Shown here piece by piece: positions 4,853 to 34,510 of a DNA stretch of 64,000 bases. The notes beneath the pieces are model-generated. The model worked only from the letters and a program-made list of their open reading frames with translations, searched no databases and was not told the DNA's origin. Numbering within the stretch: the stretch's first letter is position 1; the number at the start of each line of letters is the position of its first letter. Source of the DNA: Eledone cirrhosa. Lineage: Eukaryota. The stretch is from assembly GCA_964016885.1 (NCBI GenBank), contig OZ024740.1:311488001-311552000 (forward strand), given 5' to 3'. A program made the position numbers and the translations under genes.

Positions 4853-5043
4853 TCAGAGAAAATAGGGGGTAGTTGATCGAGTAGGGATGACTCTCTCGTT
4901 GTCTGGGACAGCATCAAACATCATGGCTTCCTTGTTGTTGCAGTCTGTAAAAGATAACACTGCAGCCACATTGCCACAGCGATAGCAATAATTTGGAGCA
5001 GACCAGACAGTTACCAGTTTCTCATCAAACATGAATCGGTAAC
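4853..5043 (-). CDS. PPP6C: PPP6C exon 10 ([24 protein letters not shown]...STTPYFL*)
   Basis: CAG acceptor; TGA at 4853-4855; minus-strand AATAAA at 4826-4831. Confidence 0.96.
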
Positions 5044-8000
5044 CTGGAAAAAGAATAAAAAGCAAATAAATATACATGACACTTTGAAGAGTAAGCAAAC
5101 CTTTTAACATTTAAACCAGCTGTATCGAGCCAGAATTCTCTCACATCTTTCTGTTCAAACTAGCTGTAACCGGCCACTCATACCAATGTTATGGTATTGT
5201 TCTTAATACAAATAACATCAAAATCTCATAGATTCAATATTATGTGAAGTAAAGACTTTACTGCGAAAATATAATAGTAAATCTAGAATAATGTAAATGC
5301 TAAAGGGTTGAATAAGTACAGGATCAAGTCCAAACCAAACTAAATAGAAAATTAAGTGATGCAAATGGCTGAGCATTCCACAGACACATGTGCCCACAAG
5401 GAGATTCAGCATAACAGTGTGTGACAAAGCTGGCCCTTTGAATTACAGGTATAGTCCCTCTGATAGGTTTCCAAACTGTTTCTGTTTATCCAATTTCACT
5501 CACAAGACATAGGTTGAGCCATGACATTTACCCAAAGTGCCATACAGTGGGATCATACCTGGGAGCTAATGATTGAGAAACAAACTCCTTAACCATTGAG
5601 CTAATGCTGTTTTATTTGGTTGACTATTTGTTATTTCTTGAAAAAAGATATTTTTAACATTTATACAACACACTTTAAAAACAATTTCTAAAGATTAAAA
5701 CTTACCTTCATGTACTAATTGATGAGCTCGGCATATTAATTTTAAATTATTGATATGAACAAACTAGAAGAGAAAGAAAAATAATGCAAAAACAGTGATA
5801 ACAGTAAAAAGGAACAGACATAATACTTATAGCTTAGTCAGAGAAGAGAGGGCAGTACCCACAATTTTTTGAAGGGGTATGGAGACTTATAGGAGAAAAG
5901 GAGGAAGAAGCATCACTTATGGGCTGTTGCAGAATGAAGCAGTACATTAACTGAGTTAGCCTCAGAGACATGGTACATATACTTTCACAGAGAAGACTAC
6001 TAAAGCTAGGTGATGGCATTAACCCTTTTGTTACTGTATTTCTAATGAAAGACACTGCCTACGAGTTTCAAATAATTTGGCTAAAAGCTCTCAGTCCACC
6101 CTATAAGGTTGTCACACTGGTGACACAACAAAAGCCCCTAGTCCACCATGTAGTGTTCATGTTGGTGACATGACAAAAAGCGCCCAGTCAACACTGTAAA
6201 GTGGTTGTGTTGGTGACATGACAAAAAGTGCCCAGTCTACACTGTTAAGTGGTCGTGTTGGTGTCACAACAAAAAGTGCCTAGTCACATTCATGATTCTG
6301 ACATATGGAGGATGTGCTGAAAAAGCCAGTTCAACATGCAACACTTATTCTTGCAGATGGCTGTCTCTACTTCAATCAAAGTGAGTAGGAAGGTGGTTCA
6401 GAGACCCATGATGCCTGATCCTTTTATGATAAACCTATCAGAGAGAAGCAAGGTTCTGATCCTAATTTCATCATAGAATGGGAAGACCGTGATACCATAC
6501 AGCCTTTTGTTGTCCTCTTGGTTTAACCCTGCCGGTTGGAAATCTAGCTGTATCCAAGCTGTGTTTAACGATCCTTTTGAGAGAAGTAACCAGTGCTCAG
6601 GTGGCAGGACAGCCGGTGGATTCCACAACTGTCTACTGAAGACCCATGATGGTATTTATGCCACTCACAGATTCAGAGCCCAAGCCTAAGCAAAACGCTA
6701 ATTCAAAGACAGTTGTTATCAAGCTGTCATTTAATCAGACACTGTTGTGAGACTGGGAGGCAAAGCTAGTTGCTGTTGGTGCTGGTCACACTCAATGGTG
6801 GCCCACAGGATTATGCAGTAAACTTCTTCACCTTACAGCCATACATACAATCAACAATGTTTAATATGCCACATGCTAGCGTGGAAGATGGACATTAAAT
6901 GATGATGATTATGAGATTTTCTTGTAATGAGAAGAAAGGTTATAATGAAATTAGTTAAGTTATAAATTCCTACTTGCAGCCATTTCACTTCCCTTCATTT
7001 CTAATGTGGTTTTGAGAAATATTTGAGTTCCAGGCACTCTGAAGCCAACCAAGGATTCTCTACCTGGTCAATTCAGCTGAGTTAAATAACAGACAAATCT
7101 CCCTGAAATCACACCTTACTATCTTAATTAAATAAAGGACACATTAGATAATATAGTCATACATACCCCTAGAAAATGACAGGAGAATCGTCGCTAGAAT
7201 GTTTTCTTGATAAGATTAACCTGAGGCCAAATAACATATGAAAAGCAGAAATTGAAACTAGGATGTAAAAACAACTAATCCCTCTCAAGATAAAACATGT
7301 ATTTACCTCATTAGTAACCATTGCTCCAAATAACCAACCAGCACCCCGTGGACTAATTGTCCAACTTTCCACATCTTCAGGATCAGACCAAACAAGATTT
7401 AAATACGGTTAAAGAAAACAAAAATTGAAAATATTTTATAATACACAAGTGTAGTAAAAGTGCTAGACTAAATACTTTGCCATAACAAATTAACCAAAGT
7501 AGTGAGAGAGTGTACTCGTAGGTAAGTTTATAAATGAATGTATATGTTTAATAAAAAGGTACTTATGTCTAGAGCTAATCCCACTACTACTGGAGCATCC
7601 TGTCCAACCTGCAATTGGTCAGTGTGGACCAGTAGGGCTAAAACATAGATAAGCTGACAACAGCATGCTGTTGCTTCATTGAAGATGACTGAACGGAATT
7701 GAATGTTTAACCCTTAACATCCTGTACTACATGAAACTGCATTAATAATAAATTCTTAAAAGTACAAAACAGCATTATGACTGCATCAAATTAAAAATTA
7801 GTCTTTACTTTAATACTGCAAATTTTTACAAAGATCTATAAACAGTAGTAAAGATACTATAAACATTAGATTTAATAGACATCCGTTTTTACATATTTTC
7901 TGCTAAATCATTAGTGTGTTGAAAGTTAATAAAAATACATTTAGTTTAGTAGTGCTAAACTATATGCACCTCTCTGCAGAACAAAGTGAAGAACAATCTT

Positions 8001-11000
8001 GACTAACCACACCAGTTACTACCAGCTTATCAGAAACATTTACCTCCACAGCAAGATAGTGTAGCTTACAGCTGTTTATGAAAATTGTCATGAACATCCA
8101 GCACTGCTTTTGCTCATTTGGATTTCGTACTCTAAATAACACTGATATCTTTTTTTAGGGTTTATATCAAACCTTTCTACTTTTTACACATGGAAGCACG
8201 GCCTAGAATCAAAAGGCCTTAAAATTAACCTGGCTAAGACTAAAGTTCTAGTTTGTAGGAAAGAAAATAAGGCGCCGGTCCCCTCCGGGAAATGGCCATG
8301 CTCAGTGTGTAGGAAAGGCGTAGGTAGAAACTCCATTTTATGTCCCAAATGCAAAGTATGGGTGCATAAAAGATGTAGTGGGATCACAGGTAAGCTAACT
8401 AAGAACACAGATTTTACATGTGGCCAGTGCTCTGGTGCAATAAGTAGCAGCAAATGCCCACAAAATACTAGCTCTTTCAACTGCGTAGATGGTTCCATAG
8501 AAATAGTGGATAGCTTCCGTTACCTGGGTGACAAAATCAGCAGTGGGGGAGGGTGCTCTGAAACTACAGTAGCTAGAGTCAGAACTGGATGGAAAAAGTT
8601 CAGAGAGCTTATACCACTATTAGCCGCTAAAGGGTTCTCCCTAAAAATGAAAGGCAGGTTGTATGATGCCTGCATACGAACAGCAATGTTGCATGGCAGT
8701 GAGACCTGGGCATTGTGTGCAGAGGATATACGCAGACTAGAGAGGAACGAAGCTTGCATGCTCCGCTGGATGTGTAATAGTAATATACGTGAACGGCAAA
8801 GCATAAACGAACTAAGGAAAAAATTAGAAATAAGAGGGATCAGATGTTGTTTACTCGAGAGAAGGCTACGTTGGTATGGTCACGTGATGCGCATGAAAGA
8901 CGACAGCTGTATAACAAAGTGCAGGGCAATAAAGATAGATGGTAGCCACGGAGTAGGCAGACCCAGGAAAACCTGGGACGAGCTGATAAATTCCGACCTC
9001 ACACACTTACACCTCTCCAAGACAATGTCACTGGACCGAGCCCTTTGGCGGTACTCAGTAACAGAGAAGACCCGCCTTACCTAAATACAAAGTAAAACCT
9101 ACTACAGTCAGTAGGCATCTCTAACAAGATACACCCCCATCCCCACCACCCCTACCCCATCCACTCCGCCCCCTTCAATGCAAAGTTATGTTGGTGCCAC
9201 AACATCCAGGCCGAAACAAATGAGATCGTGTAGGTGTCACGACAAAATACACACAGTCCACGCTGTAATGTGGCCGTGTAGGCAACACGGTAAAAACCTC
9301 CCAGCCCCACACTGTAAATGTGGTTGGTGTTAGGAAGGGCATCCAGCTGTAGAAAACACGCCAGACAGTCCACGCTGTAATGTGGCCATGTAGGCAACAC
9401 GGTAAAAACCTCCCAGCCCCACACTGTAAATGTGGTTGGTGTTAGGAAGGGCATCCAGCTGTAGAAAACACGCCAGACAGTCCACGCTGTAATGTGGCCA
9501 TGTAGGCAACACGGTAAAAACCTCCCAGCCCCACACTGTAAATGTGGTTGGTGTTAGGAAGGGCATTCAGCTGTAGAAAACCCGCCAGACAGTCCTATGC
9601 GAGCAAGACAACCACTCTTGCCTCAAGTGGGAAAACCCCCATCCAAACCCATGCAAGCGTGGAACAGGGACGTTAAACGATGATGATGATGATGATGATG
9701 ATACAAGGGGTACTCTCTAAAGAACTACATACTCAACTCCAAGCAGCATGTTCACTCCACTATTTTGGTACCTTACAATACATATATCACTAAATATAAA
9801 CATCAAGCTGTTCACAAATGAGAATCAGAAAAAAGATTGACAATTCTAGAAAGGATATCACAAAAGGCTCCTTTGTGTGGAATTTCTTGATTTCTGTCAA
9901 TTGTCCGGATTTGATCAATGGTTTTGATATCAGGAGATAATCCTCCATGTACACACAGGATACATTCATCAATAATCTATCAATACAAAAAAAAGACAGA
10001 AAATATATAAACTAAAACAACAATAAGGCAATCAATACGGTATTACAATTATTAATCAAATAAATATAGTTTACTAAACAAGATACAATATTTGTTTGTT
10101 TCATATTTTTTGTTTGTTAAAAGAGACAAATAAATCTACAGAAAAAGTCCAACTTGTCAGTTGGTCATTTTGGTGCCATGATGCAAAATACCCACTCTAT
10201 TCTGTAAATATGGTTGGTTTGAAGAAGGGCATCCAGTCATAGAAACCAAGCCAGAAACAGTTCTGTATGAACAAGACACGGTCACCTGATCTGACTTGTC
10301 TCAGAAAACTCACTTATCCCATGCTAGTATGGAAAATGACATTAAATGGTGACAATGGTGATGATGATCAAGAATAATTTAGAGACATCAAAAAGAGAGG
10401 GATTAAATGTTGGCACAATGCAAGTACAGTTAAGCTGTTGGACAACTGATCACAAAAATGGCCATATGTTCAGATTACAGTCATTGTTTTGTGGCCTTCA
10501 GCAAATTAAATAACTGCCTGACTAAATAAAACTACAGGCTCTATTGCCTACTTCACAGGTGAATGGTTAACAGCAAAAAGAGCATTCAGCTGTAAAACAC
10601 AACTAATCCAACAGGTAAATGGATCTAAAAGAGTAAAAAAAATTATATATAGCTAAAGGTAAATTGCTGTTAAGTCAACACTAAATGTTTTTGTTTTTTT
10701 TAAATGGATTAACTATTAAATGGTTTGTTAAAGCTAGTAACAAACTATTTTATATAAAGAATACTGAAATACTTACAGCAGCAATAGTCAGAAGATCAAA
10801 TACTTTACAACAATATCGCCATGCATTGGCATTGCCATATTTTGTTTGACACTCATCTGAAGTTAAAGAGGATTGGTTTAAGCAACAGTGAAAATGAAAA
10901 AATATGAAAAGTTACCAAAATGATTTTTTTTTTAAATCTAATCAAATAAGTCTAATACAACAAGGAATTAACAAAGTTAGAATAAGACTGTGTTCTCTTC

Positions 11001-14000: not shown

Positions 14001-15911
14001 ATGTCTGATATGTTGTAAAAGAGTTAGTATGGATTCCATACTGTCCCCTTTATAAATCATGGATGCACAAAAGACGTAGTGGTATCATTGCCAGGCTATT
14101 GGAGTAAGTAGATTTTGAATGCAGCAGATGCACATGGATTGTAAGCAGTCAAAGCTTATATTAACTAGATGACGTAACTGGCAGTAGAGGTGGGTGGTCT
14201 GAAAACATATTAGCTAGAATAAAAATACGATGGCAAAAGTTCAAAGAGCTATTAACTCTACTGGTAACAAAGACTTTCATTGTCAGAGTAAATGACAGGC
14301 TGTATTATATTTATGTACAAAGTGTAGTGCAACATAATAGTAAGATGAAAGCCTTCATGGGATTTACTAAGACTAGAAAGAAATGAAGTGAGTATGCTTC
14401 ACTGGATGTGTAATGAACGATGTGGAACAAGTAGACACAAGAAAACATAGAATGTTGTAGTGAAGACTGATCTTAGGAGACTGAATCTCAGGTTAGTGAC
14501 ATGATACTGGAGATAACCCACCCATTCATGCGAGCATAACAAAATGAGTGTCCTGCAGTTTGCATCTACCAAATTCTCCTCACAAGGTATTGATCAAACT
14601 GAGCTAACACTTGCACAAGATGCCAAATATGTTTGAACCTGGAAGCATGTGGTTGTGGAGCAAACTTCTTAACCATACTGCTATACCTGCCATTTATAAT
14701 ATAATACATTTAACATGTAAACTTTTCATGCTAAGAAGACTGTTTCGAAGTTCCACCTTTTTGATATCAAACTTCCTGAAGCCGTCCCTGATTCTATAAT
14801 ATAAAACTGTGTTTTAAGGTATTAATATTTAGCTAAAACCCTTCTACCATATTTCTTTGTAAAAACCTTTTAAAGTTATATTCCAAACATCAGCTTAGTA
14901 ATGAGAAAGTTAATTATTTTACTAAATCCCTCCAAATTCTTGATTATTTTGAAAATGATTTGAAAACCATAGACAGTGTCTTTCATTAGAAATATAGTAA
15001 CACGTGCTAATGAAATGTAATTACTTACCATAAATACATAATGTTTATCTGGCATTTCACCACCAGTACGGAAAAGAGCCATCAAATCATAAAACTGGAA
15101 ATAAATACGCAGGTAAGTGATGAAAAAATACTCCAAATAATGAAATAAAAGCATTAAAAAACAATATTTTTTATCAGTAGAAGTTAATTAAAATCAAGAT
15201 AATGCAAAAATACACCAACAAAATTTTTTTATAAATTGGATAGCTGGGTCAGATAAGGGAGTGCAGAACTCATGGACATTTGTGAAGCCTCATTGAGAGG
15301 TAGGAGGAGAAGAGGGAGGGGAAAGAAAAAAAAAATCACAATTCATAAGTTGTTGAGTAGGATGCAATGCATCAGAATATCGAGTTATTCTCAAAACAGA
15401 GACCTAGTCAAAATGCTTGCAGCAGAGTGGACTCTGCTAAAGAAACTCAAATGCTGAGTGGTGGCACTGAGTCAACAACATTGTTCCAGTTTACTCAGCT
15501 GTGTAGAAATGAGATGATAGGCCTGGGGTCCCTATCATTCCACTGCAAAGTGGTCGTGGAGGTGCCACGGCAAAAAAGCACCCAGCCCACACTGTAAAGT
15601 GGACGTGTAGGCGCCACGGAAAAAAAAGCACCCAGCACTTACTGTAAATGAGGCTGGTGTTAGGAAGGGCATCCAGCTGTAGAAATCAAGCCAGAATCAG
15701 TTCCCGTATGAGCAAGACAAGGTCAGCCAACAGGACAATCCGTCTAACCCATGCTAGCGTGGAAGAATGGACATAAACGGTGATGATGATGGTGATGAGT
15801 ACAGAGGACTCTTTAGTAATGCAGAGGTCATGACAATCCACCAAGAGCTGCTGCCATAATAAAAAGCACACAGTACACTGTAAAGCAGTTGATATTAAGG
15901 CAGGCATCCAG

Positions 15912-15943
<32 letters not shown>

Positions 15944-18900
15944 GGTTTAGCGTCCGTGTTCCACGCTTGCATGGGTTTGGACGGGGGTTTTCCCACTTGA
16001 GGCAAGAGTGGTTGTCTTGCTCGCATAGGACTGTCTGGCGGGTTTTCTACAGTTGGATGCCCTTCCTAACACCAACCACATTTACAGTGTGGGGCTGGGA
16101 GGTTTTTACCGTGTTGCCTACACGGCCACATTACAGCGTGGACTGTCTGGCGGGTTTTCTACAGCTGGATGCCCTTCCTAACACCAACCACATTTACAGT
16201 GTGGGGCTGGGAGGTTTTTACCGTGTTGCCTACACGGCCACATTTACAGCGTGGACTGTGTGTTTTTTTGTCGTGACACCTACACGATCTCATTTGTTTC
16301 GGCCTGGATGTTGTGGGACCAACATAACTGTACATTGAAAGGGGCGGTGTGGATGGGGTGGAGGTGGTGGGACGGGGGGGGTGTTTTGATAGAGATGCCT
16401 ACTGACTGTAGTAGGTTTTTACTTTGTATTTAGGTAAGGCGGGTCTTCTCTATTACTGAGTACCGCCAAAGGGCTCGGTCCAGTGACATTGTCTTGGAGA
16501 GGTGTAAGCGTGTGAGGTCGGAATTTATCAGCTCGTCCCATGTTTTTCTGGGTCTGCCTACTCCGTGGCTACCGTCTATCTTTATTGCCCTGCACTTTGT
16601 TATACAGCTGTCGTCTTTCATGCGCATCACGTGACCGTACCAACGTAGCCTTCTCTCGAGTAAACAACATCTGATCCCTCTTATTTCTAATTTTTTCCTT
16701 AGTTCGTTTATGCTTTGCCGTTCACGTATATTACTATTGCACATCCAGTGGAGCATGCAAGCTTCGTTCCTCTCTAGTCTGCGTATATCCTCTGCACACA
16801 ATGCCCAGGTCTCACTGCCATGCAACATTGCTGTTCGTATGCAGGCATCGTATAACCTGCCTTTCATTTTTAGGGAGAACCCTCTAGCGGCTAATAGTGG
16901 TATAAGCTCTCTGAACTTTTTCCATCCAGCAGTAGAAACAATACTCAGAATAGAATATACGAACAAGATGTTGTCCCTTGAGCCATCTAGAAAGACAGTA
17001 ACTCCCAATACGAATTGACTCAGACTGTAACAACCATGCAGTATGAAAAGCAGACGTAAAATGAAAATGACGATGCAACTTCAAAGGAAGGAATAAAGTA
17101 GTTATCCAGCAAAGTATCTACTACATATTAATAGTCCATGTAAATTGTTGGTATATTAAATACTACACAGAAAATACAACACTTACCTGTCCATGAATAT
17201 CTCCACATACAATAACTGGTGTTGACACAGGCTGTACATTGGATTCTTCCAGTAAAAGTTCACATACTAGTTCACATAGTTTCTATAATAAAAACCAGAA
17301 GACCATTTAAAACCCTGCTTTACTTAGAATTTAAATAAATATATCTTCAACTCACAAGTGTTTGAATGTTATTGAATAGGGAAAATATAGATATTAAGTT
17401 ATTAAGTTTGAAGTTAGAAAAAATTGGCAGAAGAAAATGCTTTAAGCTCAAATTTAAGGACCACTGCCAGGTACTGATTGTGGACCCTATTGAATGCTTT
17501 CAATTGATCTAAGTTGATAAGTGTCCCACCTGTGCCAGCTCTCTTTGATGTATTGCATAAGGTGAAGGTTGTTGTGGATTGATCTCTTCAGAATGGCATG
17601 TCTGTGCCTTCCCTACGAAACCACAGACGAAAAGCAGCAACCTAACACCTTGGCTAAAATTTTGAACTCTGCATTTAGTAAAGTTATGTGCCTAAAATTA
17701 TCAATATAATCCCCTTTGTTTGGGTCCTTTCTCAGCAGTGCCACTGCTCCTTAGCTCACAGAACTGAGAATTCTCCCATTCTGCTACCAGTTGCAATAGA
17801 CATCTGCCAAGAGGTCACCGAACAAATTTGGCATATAAATGTAAAGCTCGTAGGGCAGACCATCCAAACCAGGTGATTTTAGTCATTGCCTCTTGTATTT
17901 CAGCAGCTGTTATTGGCTTTTTGCAACAATCCCCCTATTTTACCGAAAACCGCAGCAGGCCATCAAGGTAGGCATTTAAAGTCCATCCCACTATCTGGCC
18001 CACTGTTGCTCCCGCACAGTTGAGTAAAGTGCTGCTGGAAAGTCACACACATCTGCTTGGGATCAAGTAACATGCACCCATCGTGGTGTGCTAAAGATAG
18101 GATTGTGACTTTGTTGCTACACTGTGCCTCCACCATTCAGGCCCATTGAACAACTTTCGTCCTCACGCATCTAAGAGCAGACACCTTAGCTCTGACAATG
18201 CAGCCTTCATAATTAACATTGAAGAATTGGTCCAGGGCCAATCTCACCACAAGCATGTTGGTTGTAATGCCTTTGCTAATTGCTTCTTCTAATTTTCTCT
18301 ATTGCTACGACTTTACTAGACCTTATCAATTCTACTCTGATCGCCCTGAAAATGGCGAACCACCATTTGTTGGTCGTCGGGTTGGTGTTGATGCTGGTAG
18401 CGGGGTGTAGGTGCATGTATTTGTTGGTTTCTGACTTTTGCATCTATTTTTAGAGGATATAGAAGTTTTTTTTTGGGGGGGGGGGGGCACTCCTCATCCT
18501 CGTCTGAATTTAGGTTCAACTATGTGACAACAGGGAGTGGCATGTCTTCGATGGACGTTGATGTTGTTGTTCTTCGTCTTAAGTGTTGATGATGATGTTA
18601 TTGTCTGAGTTTTGCTAGTTGTTGTAGCTGAGTTTTTTTTTTGCTGTTTGTAGGAGAGGAATATCCTCTCTTTCCCTTTCAAATTTGAGCAGGAGGTTCT
18701 TAGGTGATTTGTCGAAAGACAAATGTGACACTTGGCCATCCTCCATTCTACCCTAATGAGTAGGATGATGCCACCTGGGAGACGTATCTGTTCTGGAATG
18801 GCGTCCACATTCCTTTGATTGGTTTGAATTGGGATTTCAACCTCCGTCTCTGACCAGTTATCCTTTAGTCTGGTAGACTTCGAGGATTTTCAAGTTTTTC

Positions 18901-20177: not shown

Positions 20178-23100
20178 TGTTTCTACTTTTGGCACAAGGC
20201 CAGCAATTACCCAGTATATTACTGGTACTTTATTTTATCGACCCTGTAAGGATGAAAGGCAAAGTTAACCTCGGCGGGATTTGAACTCAAACCGTAAAGA
20301 GACGTAACTATGCTGGAAAGCATGGCATCCAACTCTCTACCAATACTGCCAATTCACCGCCCTAATATAATAATAATAATGGCTTCTGATTTGGGCACAA
20401 AACCAACAATTCCTTTGGTGGGGAAGTCGATTAAATCGACCCCAGTGCATTACTGGTACTTTATTAATAATAATTTTGCTGATGTTTGAGTCCTTATGGC
20501 ATCATATGTATGACAATTGATTGTAAAATGTATGTATTATCAAATTTTGCCTCAGGTGCCAAGTCAACACTCAGCATGGCATATTAGTGCGGGCTGTGAA
20601 CGGAGCAGATTTGTTTGGAACTAACACTGGTGACAAAAGTAAAGGAGAGGTACAAAATGAACATGAAACAGCATGTGAGGGGAAGACACTACAGGGAAGT
20701 TCAGAAAAGCAACAAATGAAGTGAGAATAAAATCATGGGATTGGCTAAAGAAGGGGTATTTGAAAAAGGAAACAGAACAATAATTGCAGTTATTAGATAT
20801 AGTAAGGCTATTTTAAATTGGACCATAGAAGAAATAGAGAAGTTGGCTAGATTAACACATAAGAAAATGGTTGAGAATGGTGCACTGCACTCAAAGACAA
20901 TTGTCATCAGGCTCTGTACACTACAGCAGTGCTACTCAAAGAAATATGGGCTTGCAAACCACTGAGAAATGGTATCAGCACAAACCAGAGAGGGTTCTAG
21001 AAAATCAAACTCTGAAACTCTTGTGGGACTTTACAATTCAAACAGATAGAATTCTTGAAAATACAAGGTCAGACATAACTTTGGTGGAGAAAGGTACTGA
21101 AAGAAGGTGTTTGTTAATCGATGTAGCTTGTCCTGGAGACCAATACATCACTGGTAAAGAAAATGAGAAAATTGTAAAGTATGCAGTCTTGAGAATGGAT
21201 GTTGAGAAAATGTAGAATATGAAAGTAAGAGTGATACTAATTGTGATTGGAGCACTTGGGTCAGTGAGAGAAAACCCTGAGAAAAACCTTGATAGAAATA
21301 GAATCAGCCCCAGCATTATGACATTGCAGAAAACAACACTTTTGGGAACAGGAAATATCTTGTGGAGGGTACTGTCTCTGTGATTATATAACTTTATAGG
21401 AAGTCAATTAAATGCACCCAGTATAATCTGTAGAGTGCAGAAATATATGTATGTGAAATGTGAGCCCCCCAGGCCATCTGAGAAGTCAGTAGCACCAATT
21501 AAGAACAGACTTAATCTGTGATGACTCATCCAACCCTTGCTAGCAAGGAAAATGGACGTGAAATGATGATGGTAATAACATATGTGTGTGCATGCGTATA
21601 TGTGAATGTGTGTTTTTTATACAATTATATGACAAAGAGATATGGAAACAAAAGTTCAAGGTTTTGTAAAAATCAAACATTAGATATTTTGATAATATTT
21701 TAAATATCTAAAAGGTAAAATGTAAATATAAATATGATCTGTATTGTTATTATTTATTTATTTTCCTTCAGTAACTGTGATATGTAATGATCACTTATTT
21801 GTATAGGAAAAAGAAAAAATGTCTTTTTCATTGAGTTTAACATGAATAAATGTTACACCATCACCAGAGGACATGCAAAGACTTGAGAGAAATGAAGCAA
21901 CCATGTTTCGTTGTATGTGCAATGTAAATGTGAGAGAAAGGCAGAGCTTGGATGAACTGAGGGAGAAGCTGGGTTTAACAGGAATCCGAGATGGTGTGCA
22001 GGATAGAAGACTGCGTTGGTATGGATATGTGATGTGCATGGACAATGACTGATGGGTGAAAAAATGCCAGGAAATCCTGGTGGAAGGAAGCCACAATAGA
22101 GGATGACCAAGAAAGACCTGGGCAGAGGTTGTGAGAGCGGACATCAAATTGGTAAGACTGGCAGAGGAGATGACGAAGGAACGCGACAAGTAGAGAGATG
22201 CTGTGCTGAGAAGGACCCATCCAACCCATGCAAGCATGGAAAAGTGGGCGTAAAAACATTGATGATGATGATATATATATATATAAACACGCAAATATCA
22301 TCATCATTTATATAAGGCACCAAACAGGCAAAAGGTAGAATGGTACTGTAGATAGAGCCATAAAAGCTAAAAGACAGGCTTGGAATGACTGAAAGAATGT
22401 AGGCAGCAAGCTGAGAGAAAAACTGGGCATAAGAATCAATTGTAATGTACAAGAGAGAAAACTGTGCCGGCATGGGCATATGATGCATGTGGAAGATTAT
22501 TCATGGGTAGAGAAGTGCCAGGTGTTCCAAATGGAAGGAAGCTGCAGTAGAGTATGTTCAAGAAAGATGTGGACAAAGGCTAGAAACAAGTGGAGAGATG
22601 TTGTGCTGGAGAAGACCTATCTAACTCATGTGAGCATGGAAAAAAATGGATGAAAAACTGGCGATTATGATACACACATATTTAATGTCTATTTTCTATG
22701 CCTGCATGGGTTAGACAGATGGTCACATGTTGAAACTAGTGACAACAGGTGACATCTCCCTCATATTGTTCCATTTAGGCTTGGTTTCTATAACTAGGTG
22801 CCCTTCCTAATGTCAATCACTTCACAGTGTGTACTAAGAGCATTTTATCAAGACACAAGTACTACCACTATACAGAGTGGACTGACTGCTTTTTGTCTTG
22901 ACACCAGCACTACCCCCTTACCACTTTTCAATACTGGGCTGTAAAGGCAGTGGTGGGAATTGGGGTGTAGGATGAGAAGGGGGGTGTAGGATGAGAAGGG
23001 AGGTCTAGCTACATGGTTCTTATTGAGGAAGGGGGTCATTACACCATGGGAGAGCAAGCATCGGATCTTGGCGGTGGCTTTGAAAGGAGTGAGTTGTATC

Positions 23101-29100: not shown

Positions 29101-29606
29101 ATTATAAGAGAAGAGTTTCAGGTGAATAGACTTTGCATAGAATATTTTATATATATTAAAAAACAAACAAACAAAAATACATTAATCAGTAAAAAGATAT
29201 GGTAGAGCTTTGTGACATTTGGAAACGTTATCAAAGAGACAATTAAATATAATAAGCAGTTAAATGATCGGTTCGTCGTTCTTTAAATATGTGTTTCAAA
29301 TGAAAGGTTGACTTAATTGGGGTTAAATACAAACAAGAACACGAGAAATCGGTTGATAAATTAAAGGAGAGATTTTTATAAGTAAACGAACTAATTAATG
29401 AACCCTCACTTGATGACCATCTACTACTAAAATTGATTGATGACACATTAAATTGAAATCAAAATTGATAGGACACAAATTTCCCTACTACATATACTTT
29501 TCCCTAAGATTAACAAAATATAAATTTGTACCTTTAGATCATTTTCCGGAAGATATTTGCATTCTTTTGCAATTTCTATCCACTTGTCAACACATTCGTC
29601 CGCCAT
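4853..29606 (-). CDS. PPP6C: Serine/threonine-protein phosphatase 6 catalytic subunit, 10-exon gene model (305 aa)
   Basis: complement(join(29532-29606,17187-17282,15029-15094,12417-12484,11160-11233,10777-10856,9859-9976,7307-7398,5706-5763,4853-5043)) = 918 nt = 305 aa + TGA, with all phases compatible. PPP motifs [24 protein letters not shown] and the C-terminal TPYFL are present. [30 protein letters not shown] and [20 protein letters not shown] are PP6-type rather than PP2A/PP4-type. Confidence 0.96.
5706..5763 (-). CDS. PPP6C: PPP6C exon 9 ([19 protein letters not shown])
   Basis: TAG acceptor, GTAAG donor, RAHQ motif. Confidence 0.96.
6090..6290 (+). repeat. 48-bp minisatellite derived from the RTE/SINE 3' region
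   Basis: GTTGGTG(A/T)CA units at 6161, 6209 and 6257. Related arrays in reverse orientation at about 61850-62090, 37720-37860 and 32260-32420. Confidence 0.75.
7307..7398 (-). CDS. PPP6C: PPP6C exon 8 ((D)[30 protein letters not shown])
   Basis: Starts with AT, completing the GAT (Asp) codon split by the U12 intron; preceded by AA rather than AG/AC; GTAAAT donor. Confidence 0.9.
7399..9858 (-). other. U12-type (minor spliceosome) intron 7 of PPP6C with AT-AA termini
   Basis: 5' site ATATCCTTT (9858-9850) matches the U12 consensus RTATCCTTT. Branch-site-like TTCTTTAAC (7416-7408) ends 9 nt upstream of the 3' end. The junction restores the conserved CDLVWSDP. Confidence 0.85.
8180..9701 (+). 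mobile_element. 5'-truncated RTE-clade LINE (young copy A) inside PPP6C U12 intron 7
   Basis: Intact 259-aa ORF 8305-9084 (Cys-rich insert, [31 protein letters not shown]). The 3' UTR has three 112-bp tandem units (9253-9588) and a (GAT)n tail at 9679-9701. Confidence 0.92.
9859..9976 (-). CDS. PPP6C: PPP6C exon 7 ([39 protein letters not shown])
   Basis: TAG acceptor; ends at a U12-type donor, G|ATATCCTTT. Confidence 0.94.
10777..10856 (-). CDS. PPP6C: PPP6C exon 6 ([26 protein letters not shown])
   Basis: CAG acceptor, GTAAGT donor. Confidence 0.96.
11160..11233 (-). CDS. PPP6C: PPP6C exon 5 ([24 protein letters not shown])
   Basis: TAG acceptor, GTAGG donor, RGNHE motif. Confidence 0.96.
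12417..12484 (-). CDS. PPP6C: PPP6C exon 4 ([22 protein letters not shown])
   Basis: CAG acceptor, GTAAGT donor, GDFVDRG motif. Confidence 0.96.
13500..14545 (+). mobile_element. Degraded RTE LINE fragment
   Basis: Frameshifted remnants ([33 protein letters not shown]). Confidence 0.7.
15029..15094 (-). CDS. PPP6C: PPP6C exon 3 ([22 protein letters not shown])
   Basis: CAG acceptor, GTAAGT donor, phase 0-0. Confidence 0.95.
15475..15797 (+). mobile_element. 5'-truncated family 1 SINE
   Basis: Same body and tail as 41470-41800. Confidence 0.8.
15912..16929 (-). mobile_element. 5'-truncated RTE LINE (copy B), inverted near-identical copy of A, in PPP6C intron 2
   Basis: Same protein C-terminus with only a few substitutions; two 112-bp units; (GAT)n tail. 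Apparent 9-bp TSD CATCCAGCA at 15905-15913 and 16923-16931. Confidence 0.92.
17187..17282 (-). CDS. PPP6C: PPP6C exon 2 ([32 protein letters not shown])
   Basis: TAG acceptor, GTAAGT donor, GDIHG motif. Confidence 0.96.
17460..19945 (-). mobile_element. L1/Tx1-clade LINE remnant (5' UTR, ORF1 with CCHC knuckle, partial RT) in PPP6C intron 1
   Basis: Asn-rich ORF1 start (19175-19552); zinc knuckle [14 protein letters not shown] (CX2CX4HX4C); RT segment [36 protein letters not shown] (about 17640-17750), same family as the element at 59350-61495. Confidence 0.8.
19948..20475 (-). mobile_element. Tandem array of family 2 SINEs with (AAT)n tails
   Basis: Two full copies and one partial copy of GGCAGTATCGGTAGAG...GAGTTCAAATCCCGCCGAGGTTAACTTTGCCTTTCATCCTTACGGGGTCGATAAAATAAAGTACC, separated by (AAT)n. 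Confidence 0.85.
20640..21385 (+). mobile_element. R4/Dong-like non-LTR element, 3' part with restriction-like endonuclease
   Basis: [11 protein letters not shown]...RSDITLV...LIDVACPGD...KENEKIVKY resembles the PD-(D/E)xK endonuclease region; degraded. Confidence 0.8.
21850..22670 (+). mobile_element. Two tandem degraded RTE 3' fragments
   Basis: [14 protein letters not shown] and RRLRWYGY remnants; tail CCCATGCAAGCATGGAAAA...(GAT)n at about 22225-22270 and again at about 22625-22670. Confidence 0.75.
24950..26950 (+). mobile_element. Highly degraded CR1/L2-like LINE RT remnant, interrupted by a MITE
   Basis: [13 protein letters not shown] near 25150; an AFDK-like segment near 25250; QGSV-like near 25835; many stops. 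Confidence 0.55.
25573..25800 (+). mobile_element. piggyBac-type MITE family A (about 225 bp; TTAA TSD, TIR CCCTTTAGCATTTA)
   Basis: TTAACCCTTTAGCATTTA...TAAATGCTAAAGAGTTAA. Other copies at about 5097-5311, 41124-41339, 44900-45116 and, inverted, 53693-53905. Confidence 0.8.
29532..29606 (-). CDS. PPP6C: PPP6C coding exon 1 ([25 protein letters not shown])
   Basis: ATG at 29606; donor AAG|GTACAA; matches the PP6 N-terminus KYLPENDLK. Confidence 0.92.
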
Positions 29607-32097: not shown

Positions 32098-34510
32098 CAT
32101 CATCAATCATCATCGTTTAACATCTATTTTCAACACTAACATGCGTTATATGGGTATCCCTTTTGAGGCAAGTCAAGTGAGAAGACCGTGTCTTGCTCAT
32201 ACAGAACTGTTTCTGACTTGGTTTCTATGGCTGGATGCCCTTCTTAACGCCAACCATATTTACAGTGTGGACTGGGTGCTTTTTGCTATGACACCTACAT
32301 GATTGCTTTACACTGTGGACTGGATGTTTTTTTTATTGTAGAACCATAACAACCACTTTACAGTGTGGGCTAGGCACTTTTTGTTGTGGCACCAAAACGA
32401 CCACTTTATAGTGTAAATTGGGGCTGATGTGGGGATGGATGTGTAAAAGCATGGATGAAGGGTGGTGTATTAGGGCGTGAGAATGTATGGAAGGAGGGAA
32501 GATGGGGATTAAGTGGGGCATACTAGAATATCTGCTTCAACCTGTGTGCATCGGAAGACGGGACTTCTGTATTACTGCATAACATCAAAGATCTTGATCC
32601 TGTGTTATTGCCTTTGAGAGGTGCAATTGTGCAGAGTCAGCTTTTATTACCTCAACCCAGGTCTTCCTACTCCAATGCTTCCATCAACTTTGATCGCCCT
32701 GCACCTTTTTATACAGCTGCCATCCTACATACCGCTCACATGGCCATACCAACACAATCTCCTCTCCTGCACACTGATCCCTCTTATGCTCAATTTCTAT
32801 CTCAGTTCATTTACACTATGCCATTGATATATATTACTATTACTCATCCATCAGAGCATGCAGGCTTCATTTCTTTCCATGCAACATTGCTGTTTGTATA
32901 CATGCATCATACAGTCTACCCTTCATTTTGAGGAAAAAACGTTTTGTAACTAGCAGGGGTAGTAGCTCCCTGAACTTTCTCCATCCCATTCTCACTCTGG
33001 TTACTATGCTTTCAGAACATTCTCATCCACTGATAATTTGGTCACCCAGGTAACAAAAACTGTTGACTATTTCTACAGAGCCTTCCAGGCATTTGAGGGA
33101 GCTAGTATCCAGTGAGTCCTTGTTACTTACTAAACCTATGCATTGGCTACATAAAATCAATGTTCTTTGATAGCCTGCCTGTGATCCCACTACATCTCTT
33201 GTGTAACCATAGCTTGCATTTGGGGCATAGGATGGAAATTCTACTTACTCCTTTACTGCACACCGAGCAAGGCCATTTCCCTGAGGGAATCTAGGCTTTG
33301 TTTCCTTTAGTCTTTGACAAGTTGACTTTAAGACCTTTTGATTCTAGGCCATGCTTCCAAGTTTGGAATGTTGTCTCTAATTCTGCCATAGATTCAGCTT
33401 TAAGGGTTAGATTATCTGCACACAGAAGTTCCCATGGGAAGCCAGTCTTGAATTCTTCTGTTATAGCCTGTAGGGCAATAATAAACAAGAATGGGCTAAG
33501 GATGGATCCCTGAGGGACCCCAACCTGCACGCTAAATTCTTCACTATAGTCATTTTTAATTCTAACTTTGCTGACTGTTCCTCTGTACATGTTTTGTCGC
33601 TATAGTCATTGTTAATTCTAACCTTACTGACTGCTCCCCTATACATGGCTTGTACAGCCTTCACAAGTCACTCATCTACTCCTAGTTTGCTAAGTGCCCA
33701 CCAGATAATGGAATGGGGGACTCTGTCAAAAGCTTTCACCAGGTCAACAAAAGATAAGTAGTGGGGTTTACTTTTAGCTAGGTACTTCTCCTCTAGTTGT
33801 CTCATGGGGAAGAGAGCATCCATGGTACTTTTACCTGGCACAAATCTAAACTGCATTTCATCTAGGCTAACTCGATCCCTAATCAGCTGTGCTATAACTT
33901 TTTCTGTGATCTTCATGTCCTGGTCAACCAACTTGGTACCTTTAAAATTTTCTCTATCTAGAGCATCTCCTTTGCCCTTGTAGCAGTTGACAATGCTGCT
34001 GCTATGCCAGTCATTGGGTATGATGCCATTTTGTATTACTTGGTTTACAATATGGGTGACTCTGGTATGACCCACGATCCCAGATGCTTTCAGCATCTCA
34101 GTAACTACCCCAAAGGTCCAACAGCTTTGCCTCTCTTCATATCCTTGATTGCCTTACTTAATATACTACTGCTGACATACATAACCAGTCCTTCTCTTGA
34201 GTCATCTTAGAGCAAACTATCTTCTTCCCATGCATTCTCCTCATTTATTAGTCTTTCATATGGTACTACAATGCTACCTTGTTTTCAGCTTCAGTGAGGG
34301 CGAGTACCCCATTATCATCATGGACACACTTCTCCTCATCAACATCACAATTTTCCATGCAACCTCGCAATCCTGAACACCTCATGCATTTGGTCCTTGC
34401 ATTGCAGAACATGCATAAATTTTTATTTTCTGCTTCTCTTCTTGAAAAGTACACTTGTCATCCAACTTCTCCCCTAGCCTCCTGGAAGTGTTCTCTACTT
34501 TCCCCATCCC
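32098..34510 (-). mobile_element. Older frameshifted RTE LINE (RT domain through 3' UTR)
   Basis: ORF pieces with YKGKGD, FVDLVKAFDRVP, VGVPQGSILSPFLF, ELLCAD and GLKVNLSKTK; (GAT)n tail near 32100; internal tandem duplication of about 50 bp at 33540-33650. Confidence 0.9.

Follow-up and report, generated by a model that had tools for sequence, protein, structure and literature searches.

A U12-type intron with AT-AA ends in the PPP6C gene of an octopod

The window analysed here, a stretch of 64,000 nucleotides (nt) of Eledone cirrhosa DNA, carries on its minus strand PPP6C, the gene for the catalytic subunit of PP6. Intron 7 of this gene is a real U12-type intron that starts with AT and ends with AA, AT-AA itself being an already catalogued, tolerated subtype. 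The reading that we consider very probable is that the intron carries U12 signals and uses the acceptor at 7398, that the minor spliceosome likely excises it with no editing involved, and that one C>A change in an ancestral AT-AC intron likely gave rise to it. The U12 class and the AT-AA ends had been proposed in a preliminary description of the window, and the donor 9-mer, the branch site and the terminal AA were all located as claimed (Table 1).

The ten exons, which begin with the ATG at 29606 and run to the stop codon at 4853, translate to 305 amino acids (aa) containing HKGAFCDLVWSDP. This product is identical at 303 of 305 positions to the RefSeq PP6 catalytic subunit P0131 (XP_029640369.1 and XP_052827323.1, from Octopus sinensis and O. 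bimaculoides). P0131 carries PF00149, and both the orthology to PP6c and the PPP motifs were found. With two differences in 305 residues, the host is therefore an octopod. Thus the gene identity and the 305-aa protein with its conserved CDLVWSDP restored are upheld, as is the cephalopod host, which the preliminary description had put forward conditionally. When P0131 was searched against the host genome (G000), 10 of the 28 matches listed were of high identity and all of these were inside the window, the others being paralog exons (37-73% identical); among the matches listed, PPP6C is single-copy. Eight of its nine introns are GT-AG, intron 7 being the exception. An Asp four residues before WSDP is present in 108 of the 110 proteins that show WSDP (170 were compared, 60 of them without the motif), as FCDLV in 91, FCDIV in 10, FCDLM in 6 and LSDLM in 1. 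The remaining two have Asn and His respectively, and an AYLN insertion was seen in none of the 110.

The donor ATATCCTTT, which conforms to the extended RTATCCTTT-type 5′ splice site, occurs once in the 128 kb formed by both strands of the window, where 1.6 copies are expected somewhere (1.2e-5 per site), and its position is the one base demanded by the protein. The branch adenosines occupy positions -12 and -11 relative to the junction, within the conserved branch distance, and the chance of a branch-like 9-mer inside a 6-nt window is p ~5e-4. Only 9 nt, CGTATTTAA, separate the branch site from the junction, leaving no distinct polypyrimidine tract; a T-rich stretch is present upstream of the branch site. 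The earlier statement that no AG is nearby is correct within the U12 range, the nearest upstream AG being at 7464-7463, but fails downstream: exon 8 has an in-frame AG of its own, 24 nt in (7376-7375). Cuts moved by 1 or 2 nt (TA-AA, AT-AT) leave the mRNA unchanged because AT opens intron 7 as well as exon 8. The splice register is therefore set only by the donor motif and the spacing in orthologs, not by reads.

Contigs of four sequencing runs were aligned to 5600-8150, the acceptor side of intron 7. The contig of run X1 (organism A), 858 nt long and covering 6885-7742, showed no other letter and no gap against the window, 7399 included; the genomic base at this position, for which a check had been called for, thus agrees with AA. 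In run X4, a second sample of organism A, exons 8 and 9 were covered at a depth of 37.1, and the unique intron bins next to them had no cover. The bins were covered at 79.05 of 86 bases in 7320-7405, 13.0 of 86 in 7234-7319 and 0 in 7406-7491. These means equal the cover of 7307-7398, and the acceptor is therefore 7398 and not 7407, in line with the earlier preference. Sequence from organisms B and C could be aligned across the branch region as far as 7423 and 7422 respectively. The joined form matching 9859-7398 was seen only as the RefSeq protein of relatives.

Other junctions and another source of the X4 contig were also considered. The AC at 7409-7408 does yield the in-frame alternative of 308 aa described earlier, as reproduced by translation. 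At this acceptor (7407) and at 7374 (297 aa), as with three frame-keeping GT/AG pairs (296, 304 and 308 aa), the conserved motif is lost or altered and the X4 cover disagrees; all of them may be used rarely. A processed retrocopy as the source of the X4 contig was set aside, no second high-identity locus being present among the host genome matches listed.

The components of the minor spliceosome were searched for in the host genome, and matches over the Rfam cut-offs were obtained for U12 (128.2 bits), U11 (96.4), U6atac (93.6) and U4atac (81.3); the Rfam scan of the window itself gave no match. Computed duplexes have energies of -6.2 kcal/mol for the 5′ end of the host's U11 with the intron 7 donor and -11.4 kcal/mol for the 5′ region of its U12 with the branch site, the latter with one G-U wobble by inspection. 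By inspection also, AAGGA of U6atac is complementary to TCCTT of the donor. U12 introns are defined by the donor and the branch site, with an optimum distance of 11-13 nt to the junction (PMC3584512). At intron 7, as the computed pairing predicts, U11 would pair with donor positions +4 to +9 and U12 with the branch site, and U6atac would then displace U11, a step established for U12 introns generally. Distance from the branch adenosine would decide the 3′ site (PMC3584512), so that the last base would be free to vary; AT-AN introns are reported to splice productively (PMC1557818). From these signals we infer that intron 7 depends on the minor spliceosome. By analogy with A-type and other non-canonical minor introns, it is probably spliced somewhat less efficiently than an AT-AC intron. 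The host genome holds 15 U6atac-family matches over the cut-off as against one for U12, two for U11 and one for U4atac, and some of these 15 may be U6 or pseudogenes. The contigs with small nuclear RNA matches are C9, C4, C12, C19, C745, C11, C2, C3, C17 and C1.

To place the AA end in its history, metagenome contigs were searched with a branch-plus-exon-8 pattern in which TAAC was required. The pattern matched 23 stretches; 13 were PP6-like acceptors at the intron 7 position, 11 of them with a donor, and 9 introns were distinct. Left out were 10 non-PP6 acceptors (nine unrelated and one in an intronless PPP gene, L004), two acceptors without a donor (L013, L023) and two duplicates. The orthologous introns have the same position and phase as intron 7, inside the Asp codon of C-D-L-x-W-S-D-P. 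Three of the nine are U12 AT-AC (L007/L020, L008 and L010, of 616, 339 and 718 nt), one is U12 GT-AG (L015, 105 nt) and the remaining five, all short, are GT-AG with donors of non-U12 type (L003, L006, L011, L016, L018/L021), several of these U2-like introns appearing to be fungal. An AA end was found in none of the nine. The donors of L007/L020 and L010 are identical to ATATCCTTT, and the spacing from TAAC to the junction is 9 nt in all four U12 introns, as in the window; it is 7, 10, 12, 12 and 14 nt in the other five. The nearest relative of L020 and L008 is Nematostella (93% and 92% over the matched exons), while L010 is weakly nearest to molluscs (75-77%). Since the same position is occupied elsewhere by U12 AT-AC or GT-AG introns with the 9-nt spacing, the terminal AA is likely derived by C>A. 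The intron position would then be an old one, U12 AT-AC in early animals, with the last-base change on the line to the octopod.

Protein models from other animals were inspected at the same position. The Biomphalaria protein P0018 reads C-G-K into the intron, which would fit a GTAAG donor, and the spider protein P0037 reads H-L-V-W, which would fit an intron ending in C. Read-through of an AA end was rejected for the Haliotis protein P0019 (GPLCNLVWSDP), in which Cys before Asn needs TA or CA. One metagenome contig, AT-rich and protist-like, carries at this PP6 position a GT-AG intron of 26 nt (L003, 1634-1659).

Several points weigh against an AT-AA intron spliced at 7398 by the minor spliceosome. 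X1 may be the sample behind the window assembly. X4 is not recorded as RNA and appears RNA-like only by its exon-only cover; its contig was deduced from bin depths and is absent from the listed pieces, and contigs lose rare forms. The join of 9859 to 7398 is deduced from the acceptor edge and the proteins of relatives. The branch site is one C>T away from the consensus, the same change being seen against the CCTTAAC of the orthologs, and the computed U6atac-donor duplex is in a non-canonical register. With TAAC required in the search, the nine orthologous introns are no census, and none of them is cephalopod. An ordinary U12 AT-AC intron, its AA being an assembly error or the private allele of one individual, would suit the origin of X1 as well as the AC ends of all three distinct AT-type orthologous introns. 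Organisms B (X5) and C (X12), moreover, show 10 and 5 differences in the records that cover the site; 4 and 3 of these respectively are unplaced, and the unplaced ones include two T>G in each organism. Against it stands the unbroken X1 contig, without a difference across 7399 and with no second contig adding depth, which argues against both an assembly slip and an AA/AC heterozygote in X1; contigs drop rare variants, and an allele-specific or species-specific state is compatible with the match. We regard this AT-AC alternative as improbable. A cut shifted by 2 nt (AT-AT, with an intron start of ATCCTTT) would give the identical mRNA, and U2-type AT-AC introns, which would allow removal by the major spliceosome, do exist (PMC1557818). 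The full U12 donor is present only with the unshifted cut, the four orthologous U12 introns end in AC or AG at the unshifted position, 9 nt past TAAC, and the donor lacks a U2 consensus; a shifted cut or major-spliceosome removal has hardly any chance of being correct.

Editing was a further proposal of the preliminary description. Octopods are a lineage of heavy adenosine-to-inosine editing, and 3′ splice sites created by editing (AA to AI) are known, for example from the auto-editing of rat ADAR2. If ADAR edited the last adenosine of the intron to inosine, an AT-AG(I) intron would result and editing would gate PP6 splicing. The octopod host favours such a gate, as does the presence in the pre-mRNA of two inverted 1.1-kb repeats, to which ADAR would be drawn; of the three local folds (±300 nt), one had the bases just 5′ of 7399 paired. 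On the other side, none of 22 inverted repeat pairs of at least 14 nt in 6000-10200 extends over 7399, and the long inverted repeat is ~1.2 kb from the acceptor. Between the acceptor region and other parts of the gene, the strongest duplex reaches -37.9 kcal/mol, within the span of the other eight acceptors (-30.9 to -38.2), and the predicted pairing probability of 7399 is 0.17, 0.11 and 0.01 in the three folds. The known editing-created acceptors resemble intron 7 in having AA at the acceptor in an editing-rich animal, whereas they are U2 sites that require AG and lie in long duplex RNA; intron 7 is U12, needs no AG and showed no such duplex in the predictions. Plants are not known to have ADAR. 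Their dominant non-canonical minor type is AT-AA (PMC10639083). Non-canonical U12 ends often function, at lower efficiency, and AT-AG and GT-AC seem disfavoured (PMC3584512), yet AT-AG is present in mammals, with 11 such minor introns in human (PMC1557818). With no long duplex predicted over the site, editing unneeded and AT-AG reported as disfavoured, the gate at 7399 is very unlikely. The broader form, a weak AT-AA acceptor as a regulated PP6 step under RNA structure or editing, with ADAR, brought in through the repeat of introns 2 and 7, editing the terminal adenosine and thereby tuning removal by the minor spliceosome, appears just as far-fetched; if true, it would be the first case of editing on a U12 terminal base. 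The rate-limiting role of minor introns is a suggested model (PMC3584512), and the throttled PP6 output proposed earlier is an instance of a hypothesis that concerns minor introns in general.

AT-AA U12 introns have been described in other genes and lineages, and intron 7 shares with them the U12 donor, the close branch site and the AA end. Three are listed in human (RASGRP4, FLJ21106 and MSH3) and four in mouse (PMC1557818, Tables 2-3). In MSH3 the human intron has AT-AA ends and its mouse counterpart AT-AC ends (PMC1557818), the same one-base switch that appears likely for PPP6C intron 7. Among the non-canonical ends of minor introns, AT-AA ranks first in both animals and plants; it accounts for 1.117% of the conserved minor introns of animals (823 cases) and 2.958% of those of plants (690) (PMC10639083, Table S1). 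Both Octopus species were included in that survey, and PPP6C intron 7 may already be listed for O. sinensis or O. bimaculoides in its per-intron tables. AT-AA is counted among the A-type (AT-AN) introns, which are CENATAC-dependent and less efficient than GT-AG minor introns (PMC8280824); by its ends intron 7 would be A-type. AT-AA is unmentioned in the excerpt of the DROL1 preprint. Human PPP6C is also listed as a minor-intron gene (MIDB, PMC6717393 supplements 1 and 8). Its minor intron is a different one, human-only and 614 nt long, with a donor context of CGG followed by GTATCCAGT that mismatches the TGT G exon end (PMC6717393). The literature search returned no paper on the present PPP6C intron. 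The significance is modest: a very old intron position in a single-copy gene occurs in four states (U12 AT-AC, U12 AT-AA, U12 GT-AG and U2-like GT-AG), which could be used in studies of subtype switching and for gauging the splicing cost of a last-base C>A.

Automated annotation often mis-maps AT-AA introns (PMC1557818), and the prediction that GT-AG gene finders would mis-model this junction came true in two of the three octopus sequences examined. Forcing GT-AG ends (GT 9861-9860 to AG 7376-7375) gives 296 aa, equal to UniProt A0A0L8IH57 of O. bimaculoides but for the same two residues. The O. vulgaris protein CAI9716164.1 (309 aa) runs into the intron (CDILLRIINLLAN) and resumes at the same AG; its C-D-I-L read-through fits an AT donor. 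The correct junction is present in the RefSeq protein of O. sinensis and O. bimaculoides. The annotation is thereby corrected for A0A0L8IH57 and CAI9716164.1, which drop or garble the conserved DLVWSDP. The mis-spliced models show a non-AG acceptor in those octopuses, AC and AA being indistinguishable from them. PP6 models of oyster, spider and snail (P0024, P0103, P0105, P0037, P0018) likewise break at or near the intron 7 junction, which suggests that a non-AG acceptor may trip annotation across protostomes.

Table 1. Features of PPP6C and its intron 7 in the window.
Feature	Positions	Strand	Basis
PPP6C, ATG to stop, 10 coding exons, 305 aa	4853-29606	-	exon model, protein comparison, single-copy search
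Exon 7, 118 nt, last bases TTT TGT G (9859 = G)	9859-9976	-	exon model
U12-type 5′ splice site ATATCCTTT	9850-9858	-	sequence; pairs with 5′ end of genome's own U11
Intron 7, 2460 nt, phase 1, AT-AA	7399-9858	-	exon model, contigs, orthologous introns
U12-type branch site TTCTTTAAC, adenosines at 7410 and 7409	7408-7416	-	sequence; duplex with own U12
Terminal AA acceptor, 9 nt past TAAC	7399-7400	-	X1 contig; spacing in four U12 orthologous introns
Exon 8, 92 nt, first bases AT CTT GTT TGG	7307-7398	-	exon model, X4 cover
In-frame AG inside exon 8, acceptor of wrong GT-AG models (P0002, P0121)	7375-7376	-	computed models, protein comparison
GT inside exon 7, false donor of 296-aa model	9860-9861	-	computed models, protein comparison
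Repeat insertion in intron 7, 312-codon open frame and 112-bp tandem unit	8146-9702	+	sequence comparison

Inverted copies of ~1.1 kb, ~96% identical and with the 112-bp tandem unit, lie at 8585-9702 in intron 7 and 15919-16929 in intron 2. Base pairing between them in the pre-mRNA would place exons 3-7 in a loop, with the duplex 156 nt from the U12 donor, and as judged from their sequence this inverted pair is a likely substrate for hyper-editing. A back-splice from exon 7 to exon 3 would combine a U12 donor with a U2 acceptor. The stop-free frame of 312 codons (8146-9081) is antisense to PPP6C and presumably a reverse-transcriptase fragment of a long interspersed nuclear element; older copies of the element are at 32555-33362, 21865-22122 and 14153-14414. 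At the acceptor of intron 5 (10857-10875, minus strand), whose donor GTAGGT is U2-type, a branch-like TCTTTAAC lies 5 nt ahead of the AG and is probably due to chance.

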